A stretch of 64,000 bases of DNA from Puniceicoccaceae bacterium (GCA_040830765.1 JBFOMH010000013.1:1-64000); one strand, 5' to 3'. Positions 275 through 8,013 are shown, counted from the stretch's first letter. Numbers and translations: made by a program. The notes: generated by a model from the sequence alone, not told the origin.

Positions 275-1012
275 CTATCCTATTTTTAGCTTTTGCTCGA
301 TGATGGTCCTTGAGTCCGCGGGATCGAGGGCACAGAGCGGGTTGAGGGAGTCCATCCAGACAAGCCCCGCGCTCTCGGGCAATGTCCGGTTCCATTGAAT
401 ATCACGATGGCGCAGCAGTATGGGGAGAATGCCGGCCCCTCGGGCACCCTGGATATCATTAACCAGGTCGTCGCCAACATAGACGGCCTCTTCAGCTGAA
501 ACCCCCAGTGAAGAAAGCATCCTTTGGAATCCCTCCTTGTGGGGTTTGGCAGGCATGTCCTGTCCGCCGCAAAGGACCACCCTGTCGAACGAGGCATGGA
601 GCTCCGGCAAGCGCTCAAGGCGATGAAAATCTCCACCCGTGGATGAGGCATTCGTTATCAGACCGAGAAGAAAGTGTTTCTTCAGTTTCCCGAGGACGGA
701 AATGGTCTCCGGAAAAAGGGCACTGCCGTTGTCAACGAGGCTCCAGTAGCCATCCCTCCAACTGAGAAGAAGGTCCTCTCCGGGAGGATTTTCAAACTCC
801 TGGCAAAAGGCCCTCCATTGCTCCAGTTTCTGTTCCGGTGTGTCAGCCGAACCCCTCCTCCTGAATTCGCGGTAGCTGGTGATAAAGGGCTCCCATCCGG
901 ACAGCTTCAAGAAGGTGAATATCTCCTTTTGCAGCCAATGTTCAGCGGCCCGGAAACCTTCAGCGGAATTCACCACGGTCTGGTCAAAGTCGAACAGGAC
1001 TGCTTTCAACAT
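275..1012 (-). CDS. HAD-superfamily hydrolase, subfamily IA
   Basis: Motif I DFDQT, motif II ITN, motif III/IV KP...YVGDDLVND. Confidence 0.85.
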   Translation of the reverse strand: MLKAVLFDFDQTVVNSAEGFRAAEHWLQKEIFTFLKLSGWEPFITSYREFRRRGSADTPEQKLEQWRAFCQEFENPPGEDLLLSWRDGYWSLVDNGSALFPETISVLGKLKKHFLLGLITNASSTGGDFHRLERLPELHASFDRVVLCGGQDMPAKPHKEGFQRMLSSLGVSAEEAVYVGDDLVNDIQGARGAGILPILLRHRDIQWNRTLPESAGLVWMDSLNPLCALDPADSRTIIEQKLKIG

Positions 1013-1059
1013 AAGTGCGCCTTGCAGGGGGATTCCAGAAACAATTCCGCAAAGGGGGA

Positions 1060-2448
1060 CTAGTCACGTCCCCACTTTTCCAGGTACTGGCTGAAGAATT
1101 CCTCCTCAGTCGGAATTTTTTCAGGTATCGGAGTCGTGACAAGGGTATAGTTGAGGAAGTGTCGCCAGTCGATGTTTTCGGATGTCATGTTCCCGGCCCA
1201 TGACCCGCAACCGATGGTGTCTGTAGTCGGAATTCCGCTACACCATCCACCGCTGTTGGCGGCAGTGTGGCCCATGTTGCAGACAACACGGCCAACATTT
1301 GCCTTGAGGGATAGCTCGTTTCGACGCTCTTCCTTCATGGAATGGATGGAAACGGAGTGCCCCTCACCGGAGTATTTCAGTATTTGCCCGACCCGGTCGA
1401 CAATCTCGCTGAAATCGTTCCACTTCCAAACCGTCAGGACAGGACTGATCTTCTCACCGGAAAACGGGTCCTCCGGTCCCGGCTTGATTCCCATGACCAT
1501 CAGGACCCGCGTTTCAGGCGGCACCTCAAGTCCTGCCTGGGCGGCGATCCAGGTTGCCTGTTTGGCGACCACATCGCGGTTCAGGTGCTCCCCGTCCGGC
1601 CAGTAATATTGTTTCAGGAGTTCCCGTTCCTTCTCCGAGCAGAGATAACAGCCTTGCGCCTGCAACTCGGCCAGCATGGCCTCGAAGATCGATTCCTCGA
1701 GTGCAACCGCATTCTCCGAAGAACAGGAGGCTGAATTATTGGCCGTCTTTGACTTGATGATCTTGGCCGCTGTCGACTCCAGGTCGACGGTTGAATCGAC
1801 AATCGAAACGACGTTGCCCGAGCCCACCGTGTGACAAGGCTTGCCGGATTCATAGACCACCTTGACGAGGGCCGCGCCGCCCGTGGCCACGGCAAAATCA
1901 CATCGCGACATGAGGTGCCGGGTTTTTTCCCGGCTGGATTCACGGATGCACAAGAGCAGGTCTTCCGGAGCCCCAACTTTCCTGAGAGCCTTGCGCCCCT
2001 GCTCAACTGCCTCGTAGGTGCTTTGCTGGGTCCTCGGATGGGGCGAGGCAATCATCGCGTTGCGTGTCTTGAGGAGGCTCAACCCAATGCAGCAAATCGT
2101 CGATTCCGGATTCGTACAGGGAACGACACTCGCCACCACCCCGATCGGCTTGGCATAGCGTTTCAGGCCCTTTTCCGGGATATCCTCGACCAGGCCGCAG
2201 GTCTTTGCCCCCACTTGGTCACGAAGGGTGCCCATGGTCTTGGTATGGATCTTAGCCACCTTGTCCTCGTAAACACCGATACCCGATTCCTCGACTGCCA
2301 ACCTTGCCAGTACCTTGCGGTTTTCCAGCTTTTGCCATTCCCAGGCGGCCGCGAGAACCATCTCATCAACCCGCTCCTGCGGCCAGAATTCGACCTCCTT
2401 GAAGGCCTTCCTTGCCCGTACATACAGTTCTTCAATGTCCTTTTCCAT
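1060..2448 (-). CDS. CoA-acylating aldehyde dehydrogenase, SauS/AdhE-N-like
   Basis: PCTNP, ATGG, GSGN, catalytic SCSSEN, GEKISPVL, GCGSWAGN. AAAW and DKxxKxHxKTxGxLRD recall sulfoacetaldehyde dehydrogenase SauS. Start set at MEKDIEE (ATG 2448, preceded by GAAAGGG). Confidence 0.85.
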   Translation of the reverse strand: MEKDIEELYVRARKAFKEVEFWPQERVDEMVLAAAWEWQKLENRKVLARLAVEESGIGVYEDKVAKIHTKTMGTLRDQVGAKTCGLVEDIPEKGLKRYAKPIGVVASVVPCTNPESTICCIGLSLLKTRNAMIASPHPRTQQSTYEAVEQGRKALRKVGAPEDLLLCIRESSREKTRHLMSRCDFAVATGGAALVKVVYESGKPCHTVGSGNVVSIVDSTVDLESTAAKIIKSKTANNSASCSSENAVALEESIFEAMLAELQAQGCYLCSEKERELLKQYYWPDGEHLNRDVVAKQATWIAAQAGLEVPPETRVLMVMGIKPGPEDPFSGEKISPVLTVWKWNDFSEIVDRVGQILKYSGEGHSVSIHSMKEERRNELSLKANVGRVVCNMGHTAANSGGWCSGIPTTDTIGCGSWAGNMTSENIDWRHFLNYTLVTTPIPEKIPTEEEFFSQYLEKWGRD

Positions 2449-2458
2449 GACAACCCTT

Positions 2459-3481
2459 TCAATGAGAAGCCTGACTTGGATCCTCAATTTCCTCTTCGAT
2501 GGCATATCCACTGCCATTCAGTTCCTTGCGGCGCTCAAACTCGGCTTTCCATTCTTCAAGGGAGTGGGTCTGAGCCGGTTTGGCTTGCTGCTTCCCTTCT
2601 GCAAATGGGGGAACCGGTCGGTCCCCCGGACCGTCATACAGGTCCTTCGGAGTCAGGGTTTCCCCAAGACGCGTATGGCCCTCGCGTTCAATTTCCTCTA
2701 TGCAATGCGCACCAGTCCCGATGGACCGGGTCACCGCAATCAGGGTCCATGTGGCTTCAGGTGTGAAGCCAAGATCAGCCATGACAGCGGCAATCGCGCC
2801 CAGGAGGTCAATATCGACCGCATCAGCACTCGCTTCCCGGGCCGCCTCGACAATGGCCTCCATCAGGGCAACAGACTCTCCGGCAACACCCAGCTTCACG
2901 GCCCGCGCCAGCAGGCGCTTGGCCGCCGGATCCTTCAACATGAGGTCGGAAACCCCGAAGGCCTCATCATCGCTGAATTCACGGACATATTCGGCGGCCG
3001 CCTCTTCCAGAGTCACCTCACCCGCATGCACTTTCTTCAGCGAGTCTGCCAGCCGGGTACCGATTGCGGCATAGGCACCGTAGGCGTGACCAAAGGCAAG
3101 GATCGAAGCCCCGCAGGCCTGCGTCAGGAAGGTCTTGGACCGGGCCGTCAGGCGAGACATGGCGGCCGGCATGGAGAGGCCGTCCTCGAGGGACAGGATC
3201 AGGATGTAGTTGAGCATCTGTTCCTCTTCCTCCGTCGGGATTCGTGCCTGGAAGTCCACAAACATGACATCAATGACGCCATAGCCTTCCTCGACCAGCT
3301 CCGTAGTGTCATACCCGCGCGTGACGATTCTGTGGATGTTCTTGTAGGCGATTTCGGAAACCCAGCGGAAAGGGTGCCTGCTGGCATCCGGATCCACCGT
3401 CCCGTGCTCCCGGTTCATGTAATCATAGGGCAACTTCGGGTCGCTCAGGTTGCCTATTCTGTTCTCTTCTAAATTACCCAT
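2459..3481 (-). CDS. Citrate synthase/citryl-CoA lyase-fold protein, degenerate subunit B
   Basis: TRGYD..ELV, RIPT..E..ML, DLGF, RSIGTGAH, YDGPGDRPVP; catalytic His/Asp motifs replaced. Confidence 0.75.
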   Translation of the reverse strand: MGNLEENRIGNLSDPKLPYDYMNREHGTVDPDASRHPFRWVSEIAYKNIHRIVTRGYDTTELVEEGYGVIDVMFVDFQARIPTEEEEQMLNYILILSLEDGLSMPAAMSRLTARSKTFLTQACGASILAFGHAYGAYAAIGTRLADSLKKVHAGEVTLEEAAAEYVREFSDDEAFGVSDLMLKDPAAKRLLARAVKLGVAGESVALMEAIVEAAREASADAVDIDLLGAIAAVMADLGFTPEATWTLIAVTRSIGTGAHCIEEIEREGHTRLGETLTPKDLYDGPGDRPVPPFAEGKQQAKPAQTHSLEEWKAEFERRKELNGSGYAIEEEIEDPSQASH

Positions 3482-4395
3482 TGCTTGTATTCTCCTTCCT
3501 CCTTCTGCTTCTTAGCGTAGTCCTGGCGCTCGGAAAGTTTCGGAACGCGCCGGTCCACCGGCCCGACATACTTGATCATTGAAAGGTCCAGCATCTGCAC
3601 CATCGGCTCGTTGCGCGAGGCCGCCCAAGCCCTCCCCTTCTTGAGGGTGAACACCGCATGGGCCGCGCAGCTGTAGCCCCGGACCAGGCTTCCGATACAC
3701 CATGCGGCGTTGGGGGAAAACCCGATGTCACAAAGGGCCGTGTTACCGGCACCAACGCAATTGACCGGAACATAGGAACGGCCCTCCTTCTTGCGGCGGG
3801 CATGGAAGTGCTTCTCGATCGCTCGCTGCAACTTGAGATAAATACCGTCCAGATCGAGTTCTTCCTGCTTGAGATGGGTTGGCTCGGCCCGGGGATCACC
3901 ATCCCTGTGTTGGGGCTGTCCCATCCCCATAACCGGCTGGTTGTGGTCCATGTAGTCGTCGACCAGGATCTTGGCGATTTCCTCCACGGTTTTCCCTTCT
4001 TCAAGCGCGCGCTCGAGATACTTGTTCATCATGTACCCATGGGCCGCTCCCGGACCGTGGGCGCCCCCGAAGGTCATGACCGCGGCCGCCACGGCGGCCG
4101 GTAGATTGGGACGCCCGGCAGTGACAGCGATAGCCGAGGCCGCCGACGGGGACATGGAGTGCTCCATGAATTCCCCCATCTCGTACTTCAGCATCTTTTC
4201 CTCCGCATCCGTGGGAATGCGTCCTTGGAAGAGGACGAAAATCGCATCGCAGAGGGAATATCCCTCCTCTGCAAGATCGCTCAGGTCATATCCACGAAGA
4301 ACGGTCTTTTCTTCCGTCTTGTAGCCGATGGCCGTCTTTCGCTTGAAAAACGGGTCCCGGCAAGCGGGCGTTTTCTGCTTCGTAACTTTACTCAT
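3469..4395 (-). CDS. Citrate synthase/citryl-CoA lyase-fold protein, subunit A
   Basis: TAI..LRGYDL.DL, GRIPT, EHSMSPS, AHGPG, GMGQ..H..GDPR, NCVGA, DIGF, YVGPVDR; overlaps the downstream paralog by 13 bp. Confidence 0.8.
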   Translation of the reverse strand: MSKVTKQKTPACRDPFFKRKTAIGYKTEEKTVLRGYDLSDLAEEGYSLCDAIFVLFQGRIPTDAEEKMLKYEMGEFMEHSMSPSAASAIAVTAGRPNLPAAVAAAVMTFGGAHGPGAAHGYMMNKYLERALEEGKTVEEIAKILVDDYMDHNQPVMGMGQPQHRDGDPRAEPTHLKQEELDLDGIYLKLQRAIEKHFHARRKKEGRSYVPVNCVGAGNTALCDIGFSPNAAWCIGSLVRGYSCAAHAVFTLKKGRAWAASRNEPMVQMLDLSMIKYVGPVDRRVPKLSERQDYAKKQKEEGEYKQWVI

Positions 4396-4457
4396 CTTGG
4401 TCCCTTCTTTGTCTGCTTAATCTGTGTTTCCGGCTGTATCCCCGAGACTGTAAATCG

Positions 4458-5333
4458 TCATATCCGCCGGTCGGAAATTGCCTCGAAAGTATCCTGGACT
4501 GTCTCCAGGGCGCCTGGCCGGATGCCGCAGATCTCGGTAACCAGCAAATCGAGGATGAAGTCCCTTGGTGAATTGGGGAAAATCTCGCATGAAAACGGAT
4601 CCCGGTCGGAGGCCCCGACGAGGGTATAGTCCGCTACCTCACCCAAGGGGGATTTGATAAAAGCGGTCAGGGCCACCACTAGGGCACCCTGTTCCTTGGC
4701 AATGCGGGCTGCATTGACCAGGTCCTTCGTCGCCCCGGAAAAGCTCATTCCGAAAAAGACATCACCCTTCTTCATCGTCGCTGCGCGAATCGCCATGGTA
4801 TAGCCTTCGCAGTCCGCAGCCGAGTATATCCCAACCCGGCTCAAGCGGTAATTCAATCCGTGGGCCAGCGAGGCGGAACCGGCTATGCCGGCAGCCAGGA
4901 CAAAATGAGCCTTGGCCAGGCAACGGGCCACCTTCTCCATCGTTCCGGGATCAATCAGTTTCGCCGTGTTCAGGATATCGGACTGCAATTTCTGGATATT
5001 GCCCTCCAGCGGGGTGTGCCGGTCCGTGGGCTTCCTTTCCTTCGCATCCCGTAATTCCTGCGCCAGCAATACCTTGAAGTCCTGAAAACCTGTACAACCT
5101 ATCTTCTGGCAAAAGCGGATTATCGTACCATACCCAAGGCCCCCTTCCTGGGCCGCTTCAGTAATCGAGAGGTAGACCGCCTCAGGGTGGCGCTGGAAAT
5201 AATCACCGACCCGGGCCTCCGCCTCGGTCAGGGAATTCCGGAGAAGATTCAGGCGCATCGGGAAAGTCAGGTTGCCCAAGGCCTCCGCGCCGTTATCGGG
5301 ACCACTCCCCTTGCTCCTTACCGAACTGTCCAT
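4458..5333 (-). CDS. RpiR/MurR-family transcriptional regulator (HTH + SIS)
   Basis: LTEAE..VGDY, TIIRFCQKIGCTGFQDFK HTH; SFSGAT and SPL SIS motifs. Confidence 0.92.
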   Translation of the reverse strand: MDSSVRSKGSGPDNGAEALGNLTFPMRLNLLRNSLTEAEARVGDYFQRHPEAVYLSITEAAQEGGLGYGTIIRFCQKIGCTGFQDFKVLLAQELRDAKERKPTDRHTPLEGNIQKLQSDILNTAKLIDPGTMEKVARCLAKAHFVLAAGIAGSASLAHGLNYRLSRVGIYSAADCEGYTMAIRAATMKKGDVFFGMSFSGATKDLVNAARIAKEQGALVVALTAFIKSPLGEVADYTLVGASDRDPFSCEIFPNSPRDFILDLLVTEICGIRPGALETVQDTFEAISDRRI

Positions 5334-5421
5334 ACCCCATGGTGAATATTTTATCCAACTTCATCAAGATTAAAGATTATTATATCCACAGGGATGGTGT
5401 GAACGGATTACGAACGGGTGG

Positions 5422-6765
5422 TTACGCATCCCCTTTCGTATCCGCTGGGACCGCGTTCCATTTCGGAATGAGGATGATGGCGGCCAGAAGGACAAACACG
5501 CCCATGCCGTTGAAGAGGACATTCCAGCCCCAGATGGATGAGATGATACCCGGCAGGGAAAGTCCAAGGATCTGACCGGTGGATCCCATTCCGTTGATCA
5601 GTCCGGCAGCCGAACCTGCACCCTTTTTGGTCCCGAAATCCACCGCGGTGGTGCTGGCAATGAGGGCATCCGGGCCGAACAGGAAGAAACCCACGGCCGC
5701 GAGAGCGATGACCATCGAGACAGTTCCACCGCCCGATGTCAGCGTGTTGAAGGAGAACAGAATACCCGCCAATACCAACAACCCGAGGATTATGGCCGGC
5801 ATGCGACGGGCTTGGAACCATTTATCGGAGGCATAACCGAAGAAGATTACCCCGATTGGTCCGGCTGCCTCAAACACGGCGCTGATCAGCGCGCTTTCCC
5901 CGATATTGCTGCCCAGCCGTTCGTACACGATCAGGGGTCCCCAGAAGAGAATTGCGTAACGTGTTGGCTTCAGGAGGAAGTAGATCGCCGCCAGGCGAAG
6001 AATCATGGGGTTCTTGAGGACAACAAGGATTTCCTTCAAGGAACCTCCTTCGCCCTCGCTGGCGGTTTGGTCGCCGGCCTGTTGTGGGGAGCGCCTCTCA
6101 CCCTTGTATTCCTCAATTTCGCACAATCCGACATCCTCCGGCCGGTTCCGCTGGAGAATCCAGAACAAGCCTGCAATGCCCGCCAGGACGAGCGCGCAGG
6201 CGAAAAAGGCAGCGCGCCAAGTGCCGTACATGAGAGCGATATACCCTGCAAAGGCGCTGGCGAGCATTCCCCCGATGGCATAGTTGGTCGACCAAAAGCC
6301 ATAGACCCGGCCGCGTTCCCGGCGGGCAAACCAGTAGCTGACATTCTTGGTCAGGGGCGCCCAACCGGATGCCTGGCACAGTCCCTGGAAGAAGAGCAGG
6401 AGTCCGAATATGATGAAGTGATAGGACAGGCCGAACAGGATCGCCACAACCACGGAGCCCATCATGCCGCTCAAGACAATGCGACGGGAGCCAAAACGGT
6501 CGCCCAGCGCACCCCAAATGAATTGCCCGAGCGCGTAAGCCACACCATAGGCGCCGTCAACAATACCAAGGGCAGACTTGCTGACCTCGATCGCCGGATC
6601 CTCAAGGATACCAATCTTGGCGACGGCGTAGGCCTTTCGCGTGAAATAGAATCCAACATACCCCAGCCAGGTAATAAAGAAAATCCTCCACCGCCACCGC
6701 TCGTATTTAGCCTTGAAGTCATGATCCATGGGTTCGGGAGCGGTTTCATTTTCCATTGTATTCAT
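5422..6765 (-). CDS. MFS transporter, organophosphate:Pi antiporter (GlpT/UhpT) family
   Basis: YFTRK, G.LGDRFGSR, WFARRERG..YGFWST, multiple hydrophobic TM segments. Confidence 0.88.
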   Translation of the reverse strand: MNTMENETAPEPMDHDFKAKYERWRWRIFFITWLGYVGFYFTRKAYAVAKIGILEDPAIEVSKSALGIVDGAYGVAYALGQFIWGALGDRFGSRRIVLSGMMGSVVVAILFGLSYHFIIFGLLLFFQGLCQASGWAPLTKNVSYWFARRERGRVYGFWSTNYAIGGMLASAFAGYIALMYGTWRAAFFACALVLAGIAGLFWILQRNRPEDVGLCEIEEYKGERRSPQQAGDQTASEGEGGSLKEILVVLKNPMILRLAAIYFLLKPTRYAILFWGPLIVYERLGSNIGESALISAVFEAAGPIGVIFFGYASDKWFQARRMPAIILGLLVLAGILFSFNTLTSGGGTVSMVIALAAVGFFLFGPDALIASTTAVDFGTKKGAGSAAGLINGMGSTGQILGLSLPGIISSIWGWNVLFNGMGVFVLLAAIILIPKWNAVPADTKGDA

Positions 6766-6785
6766 GCCAGTTCTTTCCCCTTTCT

Positions 6786-7886
6786 TCAGGATTCGGATTC
6801 GATACGGACACCCACGCGATGCGCCCCGGAGGAAAGGGCGTAGGAGAAGGCCTCGTCAACAGAATCGAGATCAAAGCGGTCATGCACCAGTTCGAGAAAA
6901 GGAAAGTCGGAATAGTGTTGCTCCATGAACTCGACCGCGGCCACAAAGTCCTCCAGGTTGTAATTGTGCAGGCCCTTAATGACATGCAGGTTCCGGACGG
7001 CCTGCTCGGCGTTCACGGCGACGGCCCGCTGAGGAGAAACGGCGCCGACCCAGACGGCAGTGCCACCAATTCCCAATGACTGGAGAGATGCCTCCATCGC
7101 ATCAGGTGACCCACTGAAATCAAGGGCGACATCCAGGGAATCCTCCCCGAGAATATTCGTCACCAAGTCCTTCAGGGGCGGCCCGTCGGGTTTCACGATA
7201 AGGGTATCGTCCACCCCGAAAGCCCTGGCTGTTGCCAGGCGCTCCTCGCTGATGTCGACGGCGATAACCCGGCGCGCTCCATGCGCCCGGCACATGGAGC
7301 AGGCAATGATACCCAGCATTCCCGCACCCGTGATCATCACATTACGGTTCTCGACCACTTCAGCCAACCGCAGGGAACCGGCGACCGTGGCCACCGAGCA
7401 GTTGATGAGGGCAATCAACTGCAGGGGAACAGCTTCGCGAAGTTTGAGGATGGGCGTATAGCGGCGAAGGATGCAATACTCGCTCAATCCCCCATGCAAG
7501 TGGCTGTCCGGTTCGATCCGTTCATGCCCATACTTGAAAAGGTCCTCGCTCTTCTGGGGGATCCCCCGTCGTGCCATCGCCGATTCGGGATTGGCGGCAT
7601 AGATAGCCCAGGAAAGCCGATCACCCACAGCAAGCGCATCACCCCTGGCATCATGGGTCGGTGCACCGGGACCAAACGCCTCAATTGAACCAGCGATCTC
7701 GTGCCCGAGTATGGTCGGTGTCTTTTCGGTACGCAGGCCTGAGAATGTGTGAAGGTCGCTACGGCAAATCGTTGTGTACTCGTTCCTGACAAGGATTTCA
7801 CCTTCCTTCAATTGGGGGATCTCGACGGCTTCGCTCGCAAAGGGAGCATTCGGCTGGTTAAAAATGGCCGTCCTGCTTGTTTTCAT
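6786..7886 (-). CDS. Zn-dependent alcohol dehydrogenase, HpnZ-like (phosphonate-catabolism-associated family)
   Basis: ICRSDLH, ILGHE, RGIPQK..LFKYGHE, NCSVAT, GAGMLG, GLHNY; start taken at MKTSRT. Confidence 0.8.
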   Translation of the reverse strand: MKTSRTAIFNQPNAPFASEAVEIPQLKEGEILVRNEYTTICRSDLHTFSGLRTEKTPTILGHEIAGSIEAFGPGAPTHDARGDALAVGDRLSWAIYAANPESAMARRGIPQKSEDLFKYGHERIEPDSHLHGGLSEYCILRRYTPILKLREAVPLQLIALINCSVATVAGSLRLAEVVENRNVMITGAGMLGIIACSMCRAHGARRVIAVDISEERLATARAFGVDDTLIVKPDGPPLKDLVTNILGEDSLDVALDFSGSPDAMEASLQSLGIGGTAVWVGAVSPQRAVAVNAEQAVRNLHVIKGLHNYNLEDFVAAVEFMEQHYSDFPFLELVHDRFDLDSVDEAFSYALSSGAHRVGVRIESES

Positions 7887-8013
7887 GGATAAATGCATAA
7901 GTGGATTCGCAGTGGACGGCAATCATGAAGCGTCCCGGGAATGAGTACGGAAGGACTTTAAAATTGCAGACCGGTGGTTAATCGGCCAATATCCTTTCCG
8001 AAAGGAACACGCC

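Follow-up and report, generated by a model that had tools for sequence, protein, structure and literature searches.

Phosphonates form a large pool of marine organic phosphorus and, to our knowledge, only a handful of enzymes (PhnX, PhnA, PalA, PhnZ and C-P lyase) break the carbon–phosphorus (C-P) bond. The question raised by the locus described here, from Puniceicoccaceae bacterium (GCA_040830765.1 JBFOMH010000013.1:1-64000; this stretch of 64,000 nt is referred to as the window), is what two proteins of the citrate synthase fold, CSA and CSB, are doing in a cluster whose relatives are accompanied by phosphonate genes. A preliminary description of this DNA had proposed that 2-hydroxyethylphosphonate is converted via phosphonoacetyl-CoA to acetyl-CoA and inorganic phosphate (Pi), and this phosphonate reading is supported by comparative genomics, the chemistry itself being our inference. 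We put at about 0.62 the probability that the cluster is an operon, inducible by its substrate, for the catabolism of a C2 phosphonate, acting via a coenzyme A (CoA) thioester whose C-P bond would be cut by the citrate-synthase-like pair. The seven co-oriented genes and the families first named for them are borne out by a listing of the open reading frames of the window, in which all seven lie on the minus strand and span 275-7922, and by Pfam and NCBIfam scans:

6786..7922, minus strand: ADH, a Zn-dependent, HpnZ-like alcohol dehydrogenase (ADH_N and ADH_zinc_N domains)
5422..6765, minus strand: a major facilitator superfamily (MFS) carrier of the organophosphate:phosphate antiporter (OPA) type, GlpT/PgtP/UhpC-like (MFS_1)
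4458..5333, minus strand: RpiR, an RpiR/MurR-family regulator (HTH_6 and SIS)
3469..4395, minus strand: CSA, a citryl-CoA-lyase-fold protein (Citrate_synt)
2459..3481, minus strand: CSB, a degenerate paralogue of CSA (Citrate_synt)
1060..2517, minus strand: ALDH, a CoA-acylating aldehyde dehydrogenase, nearest to SauS (NF047625)
275..1012, minus strand: an accessory HAD-IA hydrolase, TIGR02253-like, with the motif DFDQT

Relatives of CSA were collected by scanning one genome per prokaryotic species, which yielded 227 stretches of which the best 80 were kept (the 80 loci), and the presence of CSA, CSB, ALDH and HAD in them was scored by tblastn. CSA is 74-97% identical to the window protein across these loci, which by their record titles belong to about nine phyla (Verrucomicrobia/Opitutales, Chloroflexota, Planctomycetota, Desulfobacterota, Alpha- and Gammaproteobacteria, Bacteroidota, Spirochaetota, Nitrospirota and SAR324). 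CSA and CSB occur together in all 80 loci and ALDH follows CSB in 70; in nine of the other ten the contig ends, leaving L079 as a true exception. These counts define CSA-CSB-ALDH as the core with HAD as an optional addition and, since the order of the core recurs in many phyla, the arrangement in the window is not a product of chance. The cassette is both conserved and mobile. The CSA family is also tight: a library clustered at 50% identity contains no more than 27 proteins, mostly fragments, that match CSA at E ≤1e-30.

The genes that accompany the cassette were surveyed by calling open reading frames greedily in the 80 loci, clustering them and naming one representative per cluster, a crude procedure in which some genes are hidden by antisense frames. 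PhnW was found in 41 loci, usually between CSB and ALDH (TIGR03301, 416.9 bits against a cut-off of 360.8), and all of the 39 members scanned out of these 41 match three PhnW models at E ≤1e-30. A phn_DUF6-like membrane protein is present in 17 of the 80 loci, PbfA in 10 (715.4 bits; cut-off 525), PhnS2 in eight (451 bits; cut-off 392.75) and a PhnD-like binding protein in six, while HpnZ-like alcohol dehydrogenases, one of which heads the operon in the window, flank the cassette in 10. At least one phosphonate marker occurs in 58 of the 80 loci, and as far as can be told from sequence, homologous pairs are thus strongly tied to phosphonate genes.

The preliminary description recognized no known C-P-cleaving enzyme in the window, and profile searches, which were extended to the whole genome (96.93% complete), agree with it. 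The best match to PhnX (TIGR01422) in that genome reaches 38.9 bits against a cut-off of 220, and there is none to PhnA, PhnJ or phosphoenolpyruvate mutase; the best matches to PhnW (161.7 bits; cut-off 360.8) and Xsc (212.8 bits; cut-off 676.4) are also below threshold. Fifty of the 80 cassette genomes were searched for PhnX, PhnA and PhnJ. PhnX exceeds its cut-off in none of them and PhnJ is present in two; 32 have none of the three, and 25 still have none when PhnX-like HADs below the cut-off are counted. From these profile searches, the common state of the carriers is a phnW gene in the cassette without a known consumer of phosphonoacetaldehyde.

CSA and CSB match Pfam Citrate_synt (PF00285) at 62.2 and 35.3 bits, respectively, and are 32% identical to each other. 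With the best citryl-CoA-lyase subfamily, NF004868 (cut-off 193), CSA scores 117.6 bits and CSB 100 bits; indeed, both proteins fall under every curated citryl-CoA lyase and citrate synthase cut-off in NCBIfam, and no model in NCBIfam of June 2026 captures either of them. Relatives that have been given a name in the source databases are called 'citrate synthase' or 'hypothetical'. The nearest solved structure for both is the citryl-CoA lyase 6hxp (E 3.5e-19 for CSA and 3.8e-14 for CSB). A model of CSA built from a diverse alignment reached a predicted local distance difference test (pLDDT) score of 92, a shallow-alignment AlphaFold model (pLDDT 45.8) having been discarded, and the best Foldseek match of this model was likewise 6hxp (E 1.9e-13, template-modelling score 0.83).

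The residues of the putative active site were compared by aligning CSA and CSB with the citrate synthase of the same genome and with citryl-CoA-lyase-like proteins. The catalytic positions were located from motifs: the catalytic aspartate corresponds to Asp375 of pig citrate synthase and D1026 of ATP-citrate lyase (ACLY), and the catalytic histidines are the equivalents of His274 and His320. CSA retains the first histidine (H113) and two substrate-binding arginines (R169 and R239), with Q160 at the position of the second histidine and V214 at that of the aspartate, while CSB carries Y134, V177, A186 and L227 at four catalytic positions and retains R252. In the family alignments the CSA and CSB residues at these positions are invariant or almost so. 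The aspartate is also gone from the intermediate relatives P0121, P0124, P0134, P0142, P0155 and P0160, whereas the citryl-CoA-lyase-like proteins retain N-x-D-G. Since D-to-A mutants at this position were crystallized with (3S)-citryl-CoA bound intact, as stated in PDB titles, an enzyme lacking the aspartate should not cleave citryl-CoA and, with the residue absent from both, neither CSA nor CSB is therefore an ordinary lyase or synthase. The substitution of the aspartate by valine in CSA and by leucine in CSB thus answers one objection named in the preliminary description, that the pair might be an ordinary citryl-CoA lyase.

When the two proteins were modelled as a complex, the ipSAE score was 0.80 and that of the best of three controls 0.00, on a scale where 116 of 157 solved complexes attain the mark, as do two of 215 mismatched pairs; contacts agreed between runs to at least 79%, with a partner pLDDT of at least 82. 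The model supports a CSA/CSB heterodimer, although, because citrate synthase and citryl-CoA lyase dimers have already been solved, the pass may only show likeness to these. CSB is proposed to be the non-catalytic partner or scaffold subunit.

Our working scheme is one in which we infer every substrate and every reaction from what the tools show directly, namely gene order, protein families, conservation, context and residue loss. The OPA-type MFS carrier would import 2-hydroxyethylphosphonate, possibly against Pi, and the HpnZ-like ADH is proposed to oxidize it to phosphonoacetaldehyde; entry as 2-hydroxyethylphosphonate is suggested because PhnW is lacking from the genome and an HpnZ-like ADH is the first gene of the operon. 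The SauS-like ALDH, proposed to be an acylating phosphonoacetaldehyde dehydrogenase, would then form phosphonoacetyl-CoA with CoA and NAD(P)+. In the step that we regard as rather better than an even bet, the CSA/CSB heterodimer would cut the C-P bond of phosphonoacetyl-CoA to give acetyl-CoA and Pi: His113 of CSA would polarize the thioester carbonyl and so stabilize the acetyl-CoA enolate as leaving group, Arg169 and Arg239 would hold the phosphonate, and CSB would serve as a catalytically dead scaffold. RpiR would regulate the operon, with the HAD protein as an optional helper.

The MFS carrier scores 225.5 bits with TIGR00881 (cut-off 407.75), 199.8 bits with UhpC and 190.3 bits with GlpT (cut-off 632.55), all below threshold; from these scores it resembles the OPA family and is a member of no named transporter, and we propose that it acts as a phosphonate importer. 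A carrier 85% identical to it adjoins a PhnX-like gene in L003, the corresponding locus of a sister genome. RpiR matches PF01418 (HTH_6) at 56.7 bits and PF01380 (SIS) at 43.2 bits, and homologues of 51-93% identity precede CSA in Verrucomicrobia and Planctomycetes loci (9/80 loci by clustering); a regulator of this architecture probably senses a phosphonate or a phosphorylated ligand.

A second arrangement bears on what the Asp-less proteins do. When P0155 (32% identity with CSA) served as the query against metagenomes, 53 loci (L097-L149, many of them short) of a sister cassette were recovered, whose gene content was counted by tblastn with representatives. Its order, in clusters for 2-aminoethylphosphonate, is a LysR regulator, CoA-transferase subunits A and B, a single Asp-less citryl-CoA-lyase-like protein, a non-acylating ALDH and then PhnS2/T2/U2 with PhnW or a class-III aminotransferase. 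Subunit B lies directly upstream of the lyase-like gene in 40 of the 53 loci and subunit A is present in 30, both matching Pfam CoA_trans. The non-acylating ALDH and the class-III aminotransferase were each counted in 21 loci, PhnT2-like genes in 16, PhnW in nine, PhnS2 and PhnU2 in six each and PhnA in one, the PhnW, PhnS2, PhnT2 and PhnU2 representatives all exceeding their cut-offs. This gene content suggests that the sister cassette would be a second route to the phosphonoacetyl-CoA thioester, by transferase activation of the free acid that the non-acylating ALDH would form. If acetyl-CoA is the product, it can re-prime the transferase by analogy with the citrate lyase cycle, in which the acyl transferase CitF works with the lyase CitE and the acetyl thioester product re-primes the transferase. 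The sister cassette would work alike, with the differences that other protein families carry out the lyase step on another substrate and that the window has an acylating ALDH in place of the transferase.

Several observations weigh against cleavage of phosphonoacetyl-CoA by CSA/CSB. There is no obvious general acid or base in CSA to stand in for the lost aspartate. ADH and ALDH were described as HpnZ-like and SauS-type, and in each case the family held while the model cut-off was not reached: ADH scores 308.6 bits with TIGR03366 (HpnZ_proposed), a near miss of the cut-off of 328.1 and far ahead of the next family at 113.6 bits, and ALDH scores 479.1 bits with NF047625 (SauS, aligned over residues 25-484), its nearest family ahead of AdhE (367.7 bits) and EutE-type enzymes (300.1 bits), against an equivalog cut-off of 600. 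No phosphonate marker accompanies the cassette in 22 of the 80 loci, among them the seven Verrucomicrobia loci L004 and L006-L011, the nearest Verrucomicrobia relatives after L003, where the neighbours are RpiR, another MFS carrier, a CehA-like hydrolase and an EEP-family protein. PhnA exceeds its cut-off in 16 of the 50 cassette genomes and adjoins the cassette in seven of the 80 loci (479.1 bits; cut-off 407.55), and PhnX-like HADs below the cut-off (98-155 bits) occur in 17 of the 50 genomes, often beside PhnA, so that the cassette does not always stand alone and does not replace PhnA in every carrier. The absences from cassette genomes are moreover soft, because the completeness of these metagenome-assembled genomes is not given. 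Finally, the scheme leaves the conserved HAD and, in some loci, Ocnus-family proteins without an explained role.

Those same PhnA genes would be accounted for if CSA/CSB were a thioesterase, hydrolysing phosphonoacetyl-CoA to phosphonoacetate for cleavage by PhnA or another enzyme, with ALDH and the pair together replacing PhnY; citrate synthase itself naturally hydrolyses citryl-CoA. However, PhnA was not found in 34 of the 50 cassette genomes or in that of the window, and the use of three proteins in place of one PhnY, with loss of the thioester energy, is unparsimonious. The strongest argument against a thioesterase comes from the sister cassette, where hydrolysis would be futile because the thioester is itself a product of the CoA-transferase acting on the free acid; the lyase-like protein there must therefore change the acyl group. 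We consider the thioesterase unlikely, and judge similarly improbable the possibility that the C-P hydrolase acting on phosphonoacetyl-CoA is the HAD protein, working in the manner of PhnX while the citrate-synthase-fold pair has some other role. PhnX does belong to the HAD superfamily, the HAD protein follows ALDH in 35 of 61 loci, and 29 of 34 sequences lack the Asp+2 general acid in motif I, as does PhnX. It is missing, on the other hand, from 20 of the 61 loci that have room for it, its sequence identity drops from 82% in L003, the sister genome, to 33-45% elsewhere, compared with 74-88% in CSA, and the best-conserved proteins of the cassette would be left without a function.

The substrate might also be of another kind. 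Sulfoacetaldehyde and phosphonoacetaldehyde are isosteric and SauS is the best family for ALDH, which would suit the route from isethionate through sulfoacetaldehyde and sulfoacetyl-CoA to acetyl-CoA and sulfite that the preliminary description gave as its main alternative. Yet no sulfonate family (Xsc, Tau, Suy or Isl) is among the recurrent neighbour clusters of the 80 loci, where PhnW, PbfA, PhnS2, PhnA and HpnZ-like genes are present, the ALDH score is under the SauS cut-off, the genome has no Xsc over its cut-off and the carrier is of the organophosphate type; a sulfonate pathway is accordingly very improbable. The chances are slimmer still that 3-hydroxypropionate or beta-alanine is converted via malonate semialdehyde to malonyl-CoA, which the pair would decarboxylate to acetyl-CoA: the leaving-group logic is identical and class-III aminotransferases recur in the sister loci, but the context of the CSA family is phosphonate-specific and the window itself has an OPA-type carrier and an HpnZ-like ADH. 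That CSA and CSB are ordinary citryl-CoA lyase or citrate synthase paralogues of central metabolism, as their Pfam matches and the database names of their relatives would have it, is scarcely credible given their scores under all curated cut-offs, the loss of the catalytic aspartate and second histidine, a normal citrate synthase elsewhere in the genome (450.4 bits) and the phosphonate genes around them.

C-P cleavage by CSA/CSB, the reading we favour, can be set beside the systems it most resembles. The PhnW-PhnX and PhnW-PhnY-PhnA routes of 2-aminoethylphosphonate degradation share the hub phosphonoacetaldehyde and, in the relatives of the cassette, the same feeders (PhnW, PbfA and PhnS2), although entry in the window would be by ADH and not PhnW. 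PhnX, PhnA and PalA also share the logic of the proposed step, in that a carbonyl group in the beta position allows the carbanion to leave; here, however, activation would be by a thioester and not by a Schiff base or metal-bound carboxylate, and the product would be acetyl-CoA and not acetaldehyde or acetate. Citryl-CoA lyase (Hydrogenobacter thermophilus Ccl, 6hxp) and the corresponding module of ATP-citrate lyase have the same fold and are the best match to CSA/CSB in sequence and structure; citryl-CoA lyase is a dimer-forming CoA-thioester enzyme that makes an acetyl-CoA enolate, as is proposed for CSA/CSB, and it has the first histidine and two arginines in common with CSA. It differs from them in the aspartate and second histidine, which are replaced in CSA and CSB, in that CSA/CSB would be an obligate A/B pair and not a homo-oligomer, and in their neighbours, which are phosphonate genes and not those of the reductive tricarboxylic acid cycle. 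SauS, the acylating sulfoacetaldehyde dehydrogenase described from Cupriavidus necator and Bilophila wadsworthia (PMC10413351), resembles ALDH as a CoA-acylating enzyme of an anionic C2 aldehyde; unlike the SauS systems, the ALDH locus in the window is without sauT, xsc or isethionate genes and has phosphonate neighbours instead.

The HAD protein scores 87.6 bits with TIGR02253 (cut-off 169.75) and the 25 top-scoring of its 32 families do not include PhnX, in keeping with the earlier remark that its motif, DFDQT, is not that of PhnX; that motif is nevertheless a minority form, shared by five of 34 sequences including that of the window, the other 29 having DFGQT. In the 61 loci where 900 nt or more are available for it, HAD is directly after ALDH in 35, elsewhere in six and absent in 20, and it is therefore dispensable. 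Janus/Ocnus-family proteins, of the family that includes phosphohistidine phosphatase, follow HAD in six of the 80 loci (L061:13790-14332, L071, L072 and other Desulfobacterota), an Ocnus-family protein is fused to a 2-hydroxyacid dehydrogenase in three further loci, and NUDIX proteins follow in three; the presence of these families hints at a phospho-intermediate or at housekeeping of CoA esters. A bolder version of C-P cleavage by CSA/CSB is that the phosphoryl group passes first to an enzyme residue or acceptor and not to water; the HAD and Ocnus-family proteins linked to the cassette would then have a role. PhnX-like HADs with the motif DLSGT were seen near HpnZ-like ADHs in three cassette loci (L019:2847-3596, L038 and L070).

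Other genes vary from locus to locus. MtmB-like genes (monomethylamine methyltransferase family) lie between PbfA and CSA in L019, L028, L036 and L051, and DAO-GCV_T oxidases occur in four of the 80 loci; these enzymes may demethylate N-methylated aminophosphonates. In the sister genome, whose CSA is 97% identical to that of the window, five genes are inserted between MFS and RpiR (L003:1-5257), encoding a PhnX-like hydrolase (TIGR03351, 161.9 bits; cut-off 218.9), a 2-hydroxyacid dehydrogenase, a beta-PGM-like HAD, a class II aldolase and PhnA (455.3 bits, over its cut-off). None of the five is in the genome of the window, and they may represent a route for a larger phosphonate.

The boundaries of the window genes need some adjustment. 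The ADH gene was first given an end at 7886, which is an in-frame internal ATG of a reading frame that runs to 7922, so that the gene stands and its end does not; translation probably begins further in, at 7898 or 7886. ALDH likely starts at the ATG at 2448, since the SauS model aligns only from residue 25. The CSB start and CSA stop overlap by 13 nt and the remaining intergenic gaps are 20-88 nt. A promoter and terminator scan of the window gave counts not above those of shuffled sequences, and no operon boundaries can therefore be drawn from it. Contigs of libraries recorded as RNA or guessed to be RNA (two studies, X2-X5) match most of 275-7922 at 99% or more, and some of them span the CSB/CSA and CSA/RpiR junctions; DNA is possibly present in the libraries and contigs do not show a transcript, so that they are only compatible with expression. 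One bin, 5375-5629, is uncovered, to which no meaning attaches.

Just past the HAD stop, on the opposite strand at 23-177, lie tRNA-Lys(CTT) and tRNA-Thr(TGT), which may mark where a mobile cassette integrated. On its other side, the operon adjoins an organophosphate-scavenging island (window 8014-34438) with genes for a CehA/McbA-like metallohydrolase, an aquaglyceroporin, a PhoD-like phosphatase, a GlpT-like carrier (407.3 bits), an fn3-metallophosphoesterase, GDPD, HAD-IIB, a SorC-type regulator, a GlpD-like dehydrogenase, a TonB-dependent receptor, an EEP-family protein, a sulfatase and an FGE-like protein. Enzymes of these families could release phosphonates from esters.

Our literature search, outside which most subscription journals lay so that a prior description is possible, found no paper on phosphonoacetyl-CoA catabolism or on a C-P enzyme of the citrate synthase fold. 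The sole mentions of phosphonoacetyl-CoA in the literature found are in the flavophos preprint, where it is a biosynthetic product that is predicted but unobserved, and a term search of the main text of two papers from the Peracchi laboratory showed the terms 'CoA' and 'citrate' to be absent. If the scheme is true, the pathway is categorically new. Taken with the comparative evidence, we think it somewhat more probable than the contrary that CSA/CSB founds a new class of C-P-cleaving enzymes, as a phosphonoacetyl-CoA hydrolase on the citrate synthase fold, within a CoA-dependent pathway that yields acetyl-CoA directly; with the same confidence, this pathway would be widespread in sediment anaerobes and adapted here to 2-hydroxyethylphosphonate in a Verrucomicrobium. 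If this is correct, a CoA-dependent route with a new enzyme fold adds a further mechanism of C-P cleavage to those already known, and it explains the orphan phnW genes of many sediment and anaerobic lineages. Gene-based estimates of phosphonate mineralizers would change as well, because the genes concerned are now annotated as 'citrate synthase'.

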